A DNA stretch of 64,000 bases from a virus (lineage: Duplodnaviria; Heunggongvirae; Uroviricota; Caudoviricetes): the IMG/VR virus record IMGVR_UViG_2718218322_000002, one strand, 5' to 3'. Within the stretch, counting starts at the first letter, position 1. Each line of letters begins with the position of its first letter. Made by a program: the position numbers. Positions 6,001 to 12,000 of this stretch are shown here, one piece after another.

Positions 6001-9000
6001 AAGCTGCGTGAGCAGTACGGGGTCGGACCGGTATGCAGCGAACTGCATATTGCCCCGTCAACGTATTACCATTGTCAGCAACAGCGACATCATCCGGATA
6101 AACGCAGTGCCCGTGCGCAGCACGACGACTGGCTGAAGAGAGAGATACAGCGCGTATACGATGAAAATCATCAGGTGTACGGTGTGCGTAAAGTCTGGCG
6201 TCAGTTGTTACGGGAAGGAATCAGGGTGGCCAGATGTACAGTGGCACGTCTCATGGCGGTTATGGGACTTGCCGGTGTTCTCCGGGGTAAAAAGGTCCGT
6301 ACGACCATCAGCCGGAAAGCCGTTGCCGCAGGCGACCGCGTAAACCGTCAGTTCGTGGCAGAACGACCTGACCAGCTGTGGGTGGCTGATTTTACTTACG
6401 TCAGCACATGGCAGGGCTTCGTCTATGTGGCGTTTATCATTGATGTGTTTGCCGGATACATCGTGGGGTGGCGGGTCTCATCGTCTATGGAAACGACATT
6501 CGTGCTGGATGCGCTGGAGCAGGCGTTGTGGGCCCGTCGTCCGTCTGGCACCATCCATCACAGCGATAAAGGCTCTCAGTATGTGTCACTGGCCTATACG
6601 GAGCGACTAAAAGAAGCCGGATTACTGGCATCAACAGGGAGTACAGGCGACTCGTATGACAACGCGATGGCTGAGAGCATCAATGGTCTTTACAAAGCGG
6701 AGGTAATACACCGTAAGAGCTGGAAAAACCGTGCAGAAGTGGAACTGGCCACACTAACGTGGGTGGACTGGTATAACAATCGACGATTGCTGGGAAGGCT
6801 GGGCCATACTCCTCCGGCAGAAGCAGAAAAAGCTTATTATGCTTCCATCGGAAACGATGATCTGGCAGCCTGAGTTCACAGATAAAACACTCTCCAGGAA
6901 ACCCGGGGCGGTTCACTCTTTCTCTTCACGGGCGATCTGCTGGTAGTGACGCGTCCAGCTCTGAGCCTCAAGACGATCCTGAATGTAATAAGCGTTCATG
7001 GCTGAACTCCTGAAATAGCTGTGAAAATATCGCCCGCGAAATGCCGGGCTGATTAGGAAAACAGGAAAGGGGGTTAGTGAATGCTTTTGCTTGATCTCAG
7101 TTTCAGTATTAATATCCATTTTTTATAAGCGTCGACGGCCTCACGAAACATCTTTTCATCGCCAATAAAAGTGGCGATAGTGAATTTAGTCTGGATAGCC
7201 ATAAGTGTTTGATCCATTTTTTGGGACTCCTGGCTGATTAAGTATGTCGATAAGGCGTTTCCATCCGTCACGTAATTTACGGGTGATTCGTTCAAGTAAA
7301 GATTCGGAAGGGCAGCCAGCAACAGGCCACCCTGCAATGGCATATTGCATGGTGTGCTCCTTATTTATACATAACGAAAAACGCCTCGAGTGAAGCGTTA
7401 TTGGTATGCGGTAACGCCGCGCTCAGGCGGCTTTGATAGTCATATCATCTGAATCAAATATTCCTGATGTATCGATATCGGTAATTCTTATTCCTTCGCT
7501 ACCATCCATTGGAGGCCATCCTTCCTGACCATTTCCATCATTCCAGTCGAACTCACACACAACACCATATGCATTTAAGTCGCTTGAAATTGCTATAAGC
7601 AGAGCATGTTGCGCCAGCATGATTAATACAGCATTTAATAAAGAGCCGTGTTTATTGAGTCGGTATTCAGAGTCTGACCAGAAATTATTAATCTGGTGAA
7701 GTTTTTCCTCTGTCATTACGTCATGGTCGATTTCAATTTCTATTGATGCTTTCCAGTCGTAATCAATGATGTATTTTTTGATGTTTGACATCTGTTCATA
7801 TCCTCACAGATAAAAAATCGCCCTCACATTGGAGGGCAAAGAAGATTTCCAATAATCAGAACAAGTCGGCTCCTGTTTAGTTACGAGCGACATTGCTCCG
7901 TGTATTCACTCGTTGGAATGAATACACAGTGCTGTGTTTATTCTGTTGTTTATGCCAAAAATAAAGGCCACCATCAGGCAGCCTTGTTGTAAATGTTGCA
8001 GGTATCAAGTAAGTAATTAGATGGAGCGCCATAAATTATGAATTCATCGTTTGTCGGGTCCATCTCCATCTCTTGTCCTATTGCCATTCTTGCGTCAGTG
8101 TCGTCAGCGGCGAAGCATAAAACAGCCCACGCACCCATTGTTTTAAAAAGAACTGCAATTGGCTGTGGTTTTACTGAATTTGCGTTAGCGCGAAAATCAC
8201 AAATCGCACTTTCATGAAATTCCATATATCACCTCAAATAAGTGGTTTGCTGCCTAATTTCATTTTCTGGCGACCAACACAAGTCATCTTGCTGTCAGTT
8301 GTTTGGATTTACGGTAGCCTGCCGCGTAAAGAGCTACATTTGGAAGACAAGTTGAGCCTTCATATTTTCTGGTCAACGTTGTCAGTGTTATTACTTCTGC
8401 TCTCATTGCTGGTTTGCGTTTGCATTGTAAGACCACTCGTGATGGGGTTGGCCTGTGTAGTTTGTCGGAGCTAATCGCCTCCTGACTTTGCAGGTTTGCG
8501 CGACGAGCTCTACGGCGAGAAGCTGCGGTGCCTTTAAATTCTGTTTTTCTGGACATAGATTCCTCCCGAATAAACTTTGGCGATGCAATCTCGAAGCTCC
8601 TCCTGAGACGGTTGCTTCGGCATTGCATCCCACAGCTTATGTGGTTGGGTGATCTGGCTTTTCAGCCACGTAGTCGAGAGTCGACGTTGTTTAAAGAGCC
8701 TGCCAGTCTGTTCCATTTGGCTTCCAGCGTCCTGCTGATGGTTAAATAGTACGATATGTACTTCACTTGGTCAATACAATTTGTTCTAAAACGGGGCGTT
8801 TTTTTACAACGCTTTGTATTTAATAGTATTGTTTTTTAGCGTGGGTGTATTGCCTCGGCGATGTAAGGAGAGATCAGAATTGCGTTGTTTAGTGAGTTGT
8901 ATCTATTTATTTTCCAATAAATACAATTGGTTATGTGTTTTTTTGGGCGAGAGGAAAAGAAAACCCGGCATGGAGGCCGGGTTGATGATTAGCGGTGTGG

Positions 9001-12000
9001 CCTTGAGCGATAATGCTCACACACATGTTCAGGATTTCCATGCCTTATCCGTTCATAGGCATTCACATGAACTTCTCGATCGAATTGGTCATTCAAATTG
9101 TATGTAGACATCTGTGTTTTCTCATATTGGCGGCAGCCCTACAACCGCTTGAAAAAATGTACCAGACGCGCTAAGGTTACATCGCAAATATTGTGTACCT
9201 TAACAAGGGCTCCTTTTGGAGGCTCTGGTTAAACAGCATCAATGTCGGACTGGGGAGTTGGACATTGTGCTGAATGCTTTTGCATTATTGAGGCCGAACG
9301 TAAACCTTCAGAATTGAAGAGATGCGTTCGGCTTCTTCGTTTGTGATATCGTTAGGAATGCCTTTAATCGTTACTGTAACCCCTGATTCAGGTCGAAGAA
9401 CTACTGGAAGATCATAGGTATGAAGTGCATTAGCCTTGCCTTCGACTTTTGTTGGTTCGCCAGTCAAATCTTTTTCCTCACTGGATTCTTTGTCAATCGG
9501 AGTGTATGGGATTTCTTCACCAGACTGGAAAGCTACAAACTTTTTGATTGCACTTTCCATGCGGCTTTTATATGCAGTAATGCTGCTGTCGCTAGGCTTC
9601 GGCTCAGTTGCGTTGATGTATCGCTCGGCAAGCTCATTCACATCAAGCTGAGTAACATCACCCATTTCCTCTTCTTGGACTACCGTTAAGAGGCGAGCGG
9701 ATGAGTTTTTTAAATTTCGAGCGGTGGCCTCCTTCATTATGTTCAGCGACATAAGCTCTTCAAGGAAGTCCTTGAATGCCTGCACGCTAACGTTTGACTT
9801 TGCCATTTGCTCTCTCTCTAAGTTATTGACTCAGATCGAGTTTATCCAGGAATTGATTTGCATGCAAGACTCAAGTCTTGAGAATTTCCGTTCAAGATCC
9901 ACTCTCAATAAAAAAGGCCGCACCTCTGCGACCTGAACCGCCCCGGAAATCCTGGAGACTAAACTCCCTGAGAAAGAGGTAAACAGGATGACTAAAAATA
10001 CTCGTTTTTCCCCCGAAGTCCGTCAGCGGGCGATTCGTATGGTTCTGGAAAGTCAGGATGAATATGACTCACAGTGGGCGGCAATTTGTTCCATTGCCCC
10101 AAAGATTGGCTGTACGCCGGAGACTCTGCGTGTCTGGGTTCGCCAGCATGAGCGGGATACCGGGGGCGGTGATGGTGGGCTCACCAGCGCTGAACGTCAG
10201 CGTCTGAAAGAGCTGGAACGTGAAAATCGTGAACTGCGCCGCAGTAACGATATCCTTCGCCAGGCTTCCGCTTATTTTGCGAAGGCGGAGTTCGACCGCC
10301 TCTGGAAAAAATGATGCCACTGCTGGATAAGCTGCGTGAGCAGTACGGGGTCGGACCGGTATGCAGCGAACTGCATATTGCCCCGTCAACGTATTACCAT
10401 TGTCAGCAACAGCGACATCATCCGGATAAACGCAGTGCCCGTGCGCAGCACGACGACTGGCTGAAGAGAGAGATACAGCGCGTATACGATGAAAATCATC
10501 AGGTGTACGGTGTGCGTAAAGTCTGGCGTCAGTTGTTACGGGAAGGAATCAGGGTGGCCAGATGTACAGTGGCACGTCTCATGGCGGTTATGGGACTTGC
10601 CGGTGTTCTCCGGGGTAAAAAGGTCCGTACGACCATCAGCCGGAAAGCCGTTGCCGCAGGCGACCGCGTAAACCGTCAGTTCGTGGCAGAACGACCTGAC
10701 CAGCTGTGGGTGGCTGATTTTACTTACGTCAGCACATGGCAGGGCTTCGTCTATGTGGCGTTTATCATTGATGTGTTTGCCGGATACATCGTGGGGTGGC
10801 GGGTCTCATCGTCTATGGAAACGACATTCGTGCTGGATGCGCTGGAGCAGGCGTTGTGGGCCCGTCGTCCGTCTGGCACCATCCATCACAGCGATAAAGG
10901 CTCTCAGTATGTGTCACTAGCCTATACGGAGCGACTAAAAGAAGCCGGATTACTGGCATCAACAGGGAGTACAGGCGACTCGTATGACAACGCGATGGCT
11001 GAGAGCATCAATGGTCTTTACAAAGCGGAGGTAATACACCGTAAGAGCTGGAAAAACCGTGCAGAAGTGGAACTGGCCACACTAACGTGGGTGGACTGGT
11101 GTAACAATCGACGATTGCTGGGAAGGCTGGGCCATACTCCTCCGGCAGAAGCAGAAAAAGCTTATTATGCTTCCATCGGAAACGATGATCTGGCAGCCTG
11201 AGTTCACAGATAAAACACTCTCCAGGAAACCCGGGGCGGTTCAACCTTTCATCTCCTAAATCTCTTTTCTCTTACCTAAAGAAACAGCAGGCTGGGTCAG
11301 CCCTAACAACTTCAAGTGCATCGGTCAGAGAAAGCTCCGTGCTATACAGGTGTTATTTCATATCTTTTTGCATCCAATAAATTTTCCATCTGTCCAGAGA
11401 GCGGATGCACTTGATTCTTGTTGATGGCAGGACGTTTTTTCACCTGCCTCACCCTGCCATACAGGACGCTGCTCACCGATATCTATCGTCCGGTCATTGA
11501 TGTTATAGACAATATCCAGATCATTACGGATATACTCAGATGGCCTTATGCTTTCAATGAATAGATGAACTTCTTTTTGACCGCTTGATACTCATGGCCA
11601 TTAAACTCCATCTATCCTCTTTACCCAAACGTCTCTTCAGGCCATTGGCTGGCGATAACTTTCCCCACAACGGAACAACTCTCATTGCATGGGATCATTG
11701 GATATTGCGGGTTTAGTGGTTGTAGAAACACCTGACCGCTATCCCTGATCAGTTTCTTGAAGGTAAATTCATCACCACCAAGTCTGGCTATGCAGAAATC
11801 GCCGGGCTCAACAGCTTGCTCAGGGTCAACCAGAATTAACATCCCGTCAGGAAAACTAGGTTTGGAACCTGTTGGTGCGGTCATTGAGTTACCTTCAACC
11901 TCAAGCCAGAATGCAGAGTCACTGGCTTTTTTGGTTGTGCTTACCAATCTCTCCGCATCACCTTTGGTAAAGGTTCTGAGTTCTGGAGAGAACATCCCAG

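Follow-up and report, generated by a model that had tools for sequence, protein, structure and literature searches.

A terminator-bounded prophage cassette of two genes and a structured RNA beside the repressor gene of Shiga toxin phages

What kind of cargo fills the interval between the repressor gene cI and the leftward promoter pL, the slot of rexAB in lambda, in prophages that carry Shiga toxin (Stx) genes? The question is raised by a stretch of 64,000 nucleotides (nt) from a virus of the Caudoviricetes (IMG/VR record IMGVR_UViG_2718218322_000002), here called the window. The original prediction saw in this slot a single acidic gene for 173 amino acids (aa), of no recognisable family, with its own terminator and AT-rich DNA behind it, cut off from cI by a copy of IS629 and possibly serving superinfection exclusion or anti-phage defence. 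The segment 8952..9933, read on the minus strand, is a self-contained cassette that runs from terminator to terminator and holds gene A (the 173-aa gene), a structured RNA and a second gene, gene B. The expectation of cargo in the cI-to-pL interval, forming a self-contained unit with its own terminator, is borne out; that of a single open reading frame (ORF) is not, as the 300 nt from the stop of gene A to the terminator contain the conserved RNA (9112..9284) and the 40-aa gene B (8989..9111).

Boundaries and setting of the cassette

Both ends of the cassette are formed by intrinsic terminators (Table 1). The stems of the upstream hairpin, placed at 9934-9915 by the terminator scan, are invariant and its loops variable in alignments of E. 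coli, Salmonella, Proteus and Serratia, while the flanks differ; immediately to its left stands cI, a DUF3024 gene, a 345-aa gene or an 81-aa gene. In the uninterrupted phage VT2-Sakai, about 500 base pairs (bp) lead from cI to gene A and end in the hairpin GGTCGCA-GAGG-TGCGGCC followed by TTTTTTATT. On the other side, the terminator predicted 3' of gene A was found as a hairpin at 8983..8962 whose T-run extends to about 8952, and the VT2-Sakai record annotates the same terminator. A small ORF followed by a terminator is seen in Salmonella, Proteus and Serratia too, and in the alignment the similarity to Salmonella stops just past the terminator. The cassette has a GC content of 44.8%, against 51.2% for the window. 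The DNA beyond the terminator is AT-rich as predicted (39% GC in 8650..8961 versus 51% in the window) and, according to the VT2-Sakai annotation, holds the three left operators (OL) and pL; a promoter scan also reports a promoter-like site at 8774-8746.

Between the upstream terminator and gene A, a putative promoter can be read from the sequence. Promoter-like hexamers occupy the same aligned position in Proteus (TTGCAA-17-TAGAAT) and Serratia (TTGACT-17-AAAAAT), and the window copy scores below the threshold of the consensus scan. An inverted repeat overlapping the putative -35 hexamer is a candidate operator and is kept in Salmonella as CAAGAC-CCGA-GTCTTG. As a separate observation, the leader RNA described below has an invariant single-stranded UCAAG, and the repeat CAAGAC might share a recognition motif with it. 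From its sequence, we infer that the upstream block comprises a terminator that would end incoming transcription and, behind it, a putative promoter belonging to the unit itself and perhaps under regulation.

IS629 stands 127 bp from the ATG of gene A, the distance given in the original prediction. Its target duplication, GGT, is found at 9931-9933 and 11244-11246; the insertion point is exactly the 5' foot of the upstream hairpin. Because only the first three bases of the stem were duplicated, the hairpin and everything downstream of it are intact. The claim that IS629 separates gene A from cI holds physically; as a change of transcriptional status it is not supported, as IS-free relatives already have a terminator at this place. 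Since this conserved terminator should insulate gene A from cI in those relatives, the separation, true on the map, is probably without consequence.

The surrounding map is that of a lambdoid immunity region, with cro, cII, O and P to the right of cI. The annotation of VT2-Sakai (AP000422) was carried over through an alignment of 99.9% identity (window = L001 + 5199). Five E. coli O157:H7 chromosomes show 100% identity over a 1.29-kilobase (kb) stretch holding the cassette, and in strain 4276 this identical stretch lies inside the Stx2 prophage adjoining sbcB. VT2-Sakai/Sp5, the Morioka Stx1 and Stx2 phages, phages 2851 and 1717 and the PA series are 99.9% identical, IS629 excepted; the phage records align up to 9934 and are without IS629.

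Two further observations concern the neighbourhood. A second terminator-like hairpin (GGGCTGACCCAGCC, then a T-rich tail) lies at 11289-11303 on the minus strand, between cI and the IS629 insertion point; in the intact phage this second hairpin precedes the conserved cassette terminator by about 60 bp. The window holds three copies of IS629 (5606-6915, 9934-11243 and 19831-21140); in strain 4276 the first copy splits gam, and no IS is present at the place of the third, so that the window derives from a different, though related, strain.

Table 1. Features of the cassette and its surroundings, in window coordinates
Feature	Position	Strand	Remarks
Upstream intrinsic terminator, left boundary	9910..9933	-	stem 9933-9927 / 9922-9916, loop GAGG, T-run 9915-9910; terminator scan
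Inverted repeat, candidate operator	9880-9865	-	CAAGAC-N4-GTCTTG; overlaps putative -35
Putative own promoter	9839..9880	-	-35 TTGCAT 9867-9862, 17-nt spacer, -10 TAAACT 9844-9839; read from sequence
Gene A, 173-aa acidic protein	9285..9806	-	ECs1184 (Sakai), H0093 (VT2-Sakai), WP_001130059, PHROG 2602
Conserved structured RNA, ~170 nt, pseudoknotted	9112..9284	-	between gene A and gene B
P1 hairpin	9272-9234	-	RNA helix
P2 helix	9229-9224 / 9166-9161	-	RNA helix
P2a+P3	9205-9169	-	RNA helix
P4 hairpin	9148-9145 / 9133-9130	-	RNA helix
Pseudoknot	9211-9207 with 9139-9135	-	internal loop pairs with P4 loop
Gene B, 40-aa His-rich protein	8989..9111	-	H0092 (VT2-Sakai), PHROG 21154, type A
Downstream intrinsic terminator, right boundary	8952..8983	-	stem 8983-8962, T-rich tail; terminator scan and VT2-Sakai annotation
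Three OL operators and pL	8746..8821	-	VT2-Sakai annotation; neighbouring phage regulatory DNA, outside cassette
N	about 8284-8556	-	immunity-region map
cI	11621-12322	-	immunity-region map
IS629 copy, 1310 bp	9934..11243	+	adjoins cassette, not part of it; absent from phage records

Gene A, gene B and the RNA between them

The product of gene A is, as predicted, an acidic protein of 173 aa encoded on the minus strand, with an isoelectric point (pI) of 4.85. That it belongs to no recognisable family also stands. Hidden Markov model scans with Pfam and NCBIfam gave nothing above noise, whether run on the window proteins or on 63 members of the family, the top match of the gene A product being a sub-threshold one to Phage_int_SAM_1 (E 0.047; best Pfam E-value for this type of similarity among family members 3.6e-4). 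Sequence and profile searches of the PDB with the protein gave no match, Foldseek comparison of its model with PDB and BFVD gave nothing significant, and PHROG 2602 is listed as of unknown function; every database record of the protein reads 'hypothetical'. The proposed anti-phage role found no backing in the defence catalogue PADLOC-DB v2, where the two window proteins had 0 matches and the 63 family members only scattered single ones with E above 0.002, which is not above noise.

The family is sizeable. A word-indexed search found 44 clusters, all from Enterobacterales, and a profile search against 1.84 billion representatives yielded 659 clusters (counted at 50% identity) at E <= 1e-3, 247 of them at E <= 1e-10. 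Among the 150 matches listed of these 659 clusters, nearly all are 157-208 aa long and align from end to end. Conservation is concentrated in an N-terminal domain with the motifs TARNLKNS and YKSR and in a C-terminal unit of consensus PIPLRxGxxVxIxxLPxDLTxxEAERIAxxxKA, joined by a variable acidic linker. On sequence comparison gene A is under purifying selection.

In the AlphaFold model, residues 8-95 form four helices with a predicted local distance difference test score of about 90, residues 103-128 are disordered, and residues 130-165 form a beta-hairpin and a helix at moderate confidence; the model contains no transmembrane helix, and the protein is soluble and acidic. The modelled four-helix domain (8-95) resembles the core-binding domains of tyrosine recombinases, one of the two parts expected of such an enzyme. 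The C-terminal catalytic domain with the RKHRH-Y active site is absent: the 173-aa protein has no match to PF00589, and past residue 100 it has only the linker and a 45-aa beta-beta-alpha unit. Because it lacks the catalytic domain, the gene A protein is core-binding-like and not a recombinase. Its acidity extends throughout, the N-terminal domain included, which is not expected of a DNA-binding core-binding domain.

Gene B was annotated in AP000422 as H0092 and is missing from current RefSeq tables; a protein-database search with the 40-aa ORF returned just 3 near-identical entries. Its status was judged on a comparison set of 111 loci, 62 of them distinct, taken from contigs of family members, one scan of a genome collection, which with a narrower alignment gave 8 loci, and one scan of IMG/VR viral contigs. 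A typed small ORF on the same strand follows gene A in 56 of the 62 distinct loci; its start lies 147-182 nt past the stop in 55 of them, the spacer of L021 being shorter. The encoded proteins are of three types. Type A, that of the window, comprises His-rich proteins of 40-45 aa with a pI of about 7 (PHROG 21154); type B comprises basic proteins of 57-61 aa with a pI of 10.4 (PHROG 33859); and type C comprises proteins of 46-52 aa with a CxxC...CxC pattern and a pI of 9.5, for which a weak, sub-threshold hint of a treble-clef zinc finger was the only Pfam signal among the small proteins. Profile comparison by hhalign detected no homology among the three types, and PDB searches with the small proteins found no match. 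Differences at codon positions 1/2/3 number 1132/625/1530 in type A, 1295/940/2772 in type B and 618/545/1709 in type C, with synonymous exceeding non-synonymous codon differences in types B and C. The excess at third positions within each type shows that the small ORFs, including the 40-aa gene B, are real genes under purifying selection.

The six loci without a typed small ORF are two from Wenzhouxiangella, one from Fibrobacterales, one at a contig end, one with an IS1 insertion and one unresolved. In the two Wenzhouxiangella metagenome-assembled genomes (L027 and L030, about 3997-5145) a predicted membrane protein of 196 aa replaces the RNA and the small ORF; its start overlaps the gene A stop by 4 nt, making it a different downstream partner.

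The intercistronic RNA begins with P1, directly after the gene A stop; in some relatives P1 has a GC-rich stem and a U-tract and is a proper terminator. There follow a long interrupted helix (P2-P2a-P3) with a near-invariant UAGCGG(A/U)UC on its 3' strand, and P4, behind which come the Shine-Dalgarno sequence and the AUG of the small ORF. The motifs UAGCG and single-stranded UCAAG are conserved. The two strands of the pseudoknot covary, occurring as GCACC/GGUGC, GGACAC/GUGUCC, GGUCUC/GAGACC, GGACUC/GAGUCC and GAGCAC/GUGCUC. A mixed RNAalifold run on 35 sequences yielded one helix only; as the stems are misaligned in such an alignment, three groups were analysed separately. In group 1, to which the window belongs (8 sequences), 93.4% of cells are paired, compared with 29-47% when partners are slid, and 12 pairs have changed on both sides (slid, 1-4). 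The corresponding values are 89.8%, 38-48% and 15 pairs in group 2 (16 sequences) and 84.4%, 32-52% and 16 pairs in group 3 (11 sequences). Shuffles reached the observed pairing in 0 of 500 cases in each group, although they ignore relatedness, so that slid partners are the fairer control. The window RNA by itself folds better than its own shuffles (z -3.36). G-U pairs are frequent in the fold, which therefore belongs to a sense-strand RNA; an element acting at the DNA level was ruled out on this ground. A conserved, covarying RNA structure thus lies directly upstream of gene B, as in a cis-regulatory leader.

Homology between the three RNA groups is likely, if not tight. A covariance model of group 2 finds members of groups 1 and 3 in the right place and on the right strand (E between 0.005 and 2 in 400 kb) and scores the window's element weakly (7.1 bits, E 0.14 in 1.4 kb). 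Given this weak score, the groups are linked by their position, by the motifs they have in common and by intermediate members; few nucleotides are the same in all three. Rfam gave no match at E <= 1 in window 8400-10000 and, in six related loci, a single match near the element, at chance level (E 0.45), which falls on the hairpin immediately behind gene A in L108. The published prophage small RNAs of enterohaemorrhagic and enteropathogenic E. coli (EcOnc/HnrS, Pas, AsxR/AgvB) map to other regions.

In the predicted ensemble of the window-type leader, the ribosome-binding site (RBS) and AUG of gene B are unpaired with a probability of 0.17-0.24, against 0.55 in shuffled sequences (z about -3.7), and the pairing that covers the RBS competes with the covariation-supported helix P2. 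Translational gating of gene B is likely in the window variant, as far as the folding model goes, and unproven in general. A side observation concerns P1, whose 14-nt loop (9260-9247, minus strand) is inverted, reading CCAACUCCCCAGUC in E. coli versus GACUGGGGAGUUGG in Salmonella and other relatives, with the stem kept. Judged by sequence, this difference is a stem-loop inversion of the kind made by template switching.

Distribution of the cassette and exchange of its parts

Among complete E. coli genomes, 230 of 5,426 have the cassette; among phage records it is 50 of 50,697, all of which annotate it as 'hypothetical'. Major Stx2a, Stx2c and Stx1 phages of the VT2-Sakai immunity type all carry it beside the repressor. 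Close homologues lie between a cI-type repressor gene and N in all ten gene-annotated loci (Proteus/Providencia/Morganella, Serratia and Salmonella), independently of the type of repressor and replication module, and any extra cargo is always on the cI side. Distant homologues occupy other prophage sites, behind gene P, beside int/xis or flanked by recombination and methylase genes, often in an orientation opposite to that of their neighbours.

RNA group, small-protein type and protein A phylogeny are shuffled relative to one another. In the window, RNA group 1 goes with a small protein of type A; locus L050, with a protein A of 77% identity, combines RNA group 1 with type C; and a Proteus locus, with a protein A of 73% identity, combines RNA group 2 with type B, its similarity to the window stopping at the stop codon. 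Such combinations imply that any functional contact must use features conserved throughout the family, or that the RNA responds to something external.

A paralogous cassette was also noted, of 40% identity, with the RNA of group 3 and a 44-aa type A ORF. It is carried by phage SH2026Stx1 (MG986485, 10766-11269) and loci L075-L088, and stands at the equivalent position in SH2026Stx1 and many IMG/VR prophage contigs. Two or more diverged versions of the cassette are thus present among E. coli prophages.

Possible roles of the cassette

Published experimental data on ECs1184, the Sakai copy of gene A, which just two papers were found to mention, consist only of a failed deletion and a protein detection. 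In a knockout study of Sp5 with 43 in-frame deletions, ECs1184 and ECs1180 could not be deleted, and the authors proposed a role in stable lysogeny (Mondal et al., PMC5155283). The homologue of ECs1180 (ORF21) in the window is an 83-aa ORF in the pL operon, downstream of N (7974-8225, minus strand). In uninduced Sakai cells the ECs1184 protein was detected by a 2025 study of the RNA-binding proteome, with an enrichment on ultraviolet crosslinking just short of significance (false discovery rate 0.065; PMC7618764). The failed deletion and the detection without induction favour addiction or the maintenance of lysogeny at least as much as exclusion.

The reading preferred here, tentatively and as one slightly less likely to be right than wrong, is that of an autonomous moron-type cassette acting as a toxin-antitoxin (TA)-like, abortive-infection or exclusion module to the benefit of the lysogen. 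In the lysogen the cassette would be transcribed from its own putative promoter, independently of cI and of the repressor-maintenance promoter pRM. The hairpin after gene A and the pseudoknotted leader would restrict production of small protein B or make it conditional, and the acidic protein A would regulate or neutralise either B or the leader. Protein B would be a small, translationally gated effector, making loss of A costly, and the IS629 insertion would be incidental, the cassette having been left intact. Consistent with this are the gene order, the exchangeable downstream partner, the mobile context, the failed deletion of ECs1184 and the pairing of an acidic upstream protein (pI 4.85) with basic small proteins of types B and C (pI 10.4 and 9.5).

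In kind, the cassette is closest to prophage morons (Juhala et al. 2000) and to TA-like cassettes with control at the RNA level. With morons the cassette shares a promoter-gene-terminator unit set between terminators, a lower GC content, a place between conserved phage genes and presence or absence among related phages; it differs in being bicistronic with an elaborate intercistronic RNA. By sequence it has the features expected of a moron, namely flanking terminators, deviating GC content, variable flanks and positions, and a promoter that is predicted. Morons are mentioned in PMC4104026. With TA modules controlled at the RNA level, namely type I systems, whose structured toxin mRNAs are translationally inert, and type III ToxIN, in which a terminator separates RNA and toxin, it shares a small downstream protein behind a highly structured, partly RBS-occluding leader, a hairpin or terminator between its upstream and downstream parts, a mobile-element context and an upstream gene (ECs1184) that could not be deleted. 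Unlike type I and III systems, it has neither an antisense RNA gene nor tandem RNA repeats, and its small proteins are not hydrophobic and show no toxin homology. A type III system was rejected, there being no tandem repeats in 8900-9950 save a short one inside gene A and the RNA being a single complex fold. As in type II systems there is a co-oriented gene pair; its genes are 150-180 nt apart and not overlapping, and neither matches a known toxin or antitoxin superfamily in Pfam, NCBIfam or PADLOC.

Several points weigh against a module of this kind. Neither ORF matches a toxin, antitoxin or defence family of PADLOC, Pfam or NCBIfam, the promoter is a weak match to consensus, and type A small proteins, that of the window included, are near-neutral (pI about 7). 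RBS occlusion is weak over all 38 leaders (mean z -0.70). In a crosslink-labelling assay with polynucleotide kinase (PNK), protein A performed no better than the green fluorescent protein control (PMC7618764). In three IMG/VR prophage contigs (about 4001-4500) gene A is disrupted: it is frameshifted in its linker in L099 and L101, where gene B (type A) is intact, although these frameshifts may be sequencing errors, and it is cut by IS1 in L100; loci with a broken gene A and an intact gene B fit poorly with a strict antitoxin/toxin pair.

The most far-reaching reading, doubtful though with a real chance of being true, takes the cassette for a conflict system of three components that had escaped notice in prophages of Gammaproteobacteria, those of Shiga toxin phages included. 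Its parts would be a protein resembling a core-binding domain, a pseudoknotted riboregulator of a new class and microprotein effectors that can replace one another. Upon a trigger or the loss of gene A, the small protein, otherwise gated, would kill the cell, arrest it or stop a rival phage. The possibility that B is an antirepressor matched to cI was dropped, as the same cassette is found with different cI types.

Improbable by comparison with the preferred module is a ligand- or host-factor-sensing riboregulator, similar to a riboswitch, that controls a small non-toxic regulatory protein, with gene A as linked cargo of separate function. That a covarying pseudoknotted fold immediately precedes the Shine-Dalgarno sequence and the AUG of gene B suits this explanation, as does the competition of P2 with pairing over the start region in the window variant, and the shuffling of RNA groups, small-protein types and gene A phylogeny fits an external sensor better than co-evolving partners. 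Like autoregulatory pseudoknotted leaders and riboswitches, the RNA has a conserved pseudoknot directly before the Shine-Dalgarno sequence and start, and helices that compete with RBS pairing; unlike them, it is not in Rfam and occurs only in this prophage cassette. However, few nucleotides are invariant across the three groups, no Rfam riboswitch matches, no ligand can be proposed, and in 56 of 62 loci RNA and small ORF accompany gene A, a near-obligate linkage that speaks for a functional tie.

To about the same small degree one may credit protein A with being a DNA-binding factor in lysogeny maintenance, a cut-down relative of the recombinase-derived repressors SPbeta MrpR and phi3T SroF that helps cI, with the RNA and small ORF as accessories. 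The architecture of those repressors, a core-binding domain plus a degenerate catalytic domain in about 320 aa that bind operator DNA, is not that of the gene A protein. Compared with tyrosine-recombinase core-binding (SAM-like) domains and with MrpR (8a0a) and SroF (9rd5), it is short (173 aa) and acidic, without a catalytic domain or any remnant of one, carries another small C-terminal domain (beta-beta-alpha) and is marginal in sequence similarity. Its acidity, which includes the N-terminal domain (pI 4.85), would be unusual for a DNA binder. It is also found together with cI, cro and replication modules of several types, its distant relatives lie far from any repressor, and the conserved partnership with RNA and small ORF would be left unexplained.

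The model of a single superinfection-exclusion gene that normally shares the pRM transcript of cI, as rexAB does, and that IS629 has now silenced or uncoupled, is very improbable and has been largely refuted by the anatomy of the locus. In its favour are the map position and strand of rexAB and the view of the VT2-Sakai annotators, who called the downstream hairpin the terminator of the pRM transcript. The cassette does resemble rexAB in map position, in strand, in its place beside the repressor and as non-essential-looking prophage cargo; as cargo beside the repressor in a prophage, it is plausibly expressed in the lysogen. In contrast to rexAB, neither ORF shows sequence or domain similarity to RexA or to RexB, a multi-pass membrane protein, nor membrane segments or a defence-model match (Pfam, NCBIfam, PADLOC). 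The unit also includes an RNA and a second gene and is not confined to this prophage position; in IS-free phages of four genera a conserved terminator, which should insulate it from cI, and a promoter-like element, its putative own promoter, stand between cI and gene A. That the locus is evolutionary debris, a hypothetical ORF with chance hairpins, is hardly credible: the absence of a published phenotype and the uniformly 'hypothetical' records would agree with it, but about 659 clusters at 50% identity of uniform length and architecture, purifying selection on both ORFs, compensatory changes in three RNA groups and detection of the gene A protein in cells do not.

Gene A was already catalogued, though uncharacterised, and H0092 had been annotated earlier in VT2-Sakai. 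Rfam, PADLOC, Pfam and the literature searched contain no description of the three-part module, of H0092 as a real gene or of the covarying pseudoknotted RNA. The first gene of the cassette is one of two early Sp5 genes refractory to systematic knockout (PMC5155283), and what was a 'hypothetical protein' is now a testable protein-RNA-microprotein module with hundreds of sequence clusters in many prophages. It offers as handles an unannotated 40-aa gene and an undescribed RNA whose pseudoknot can be broken and restored by mutation. The TA reading makes a clear genetic prediction, namely that deletion of gene A should succeed in the absence of an active gene B. An RNA that responds to a ligand or host factor would, if that is its role here, be a riboregulator of a new class. 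If the cassette serves defence or addiction, it would bear on the stability and spread of Shiga toxin prophages and would add a type of RNA-containing conflict system to those of prophages.

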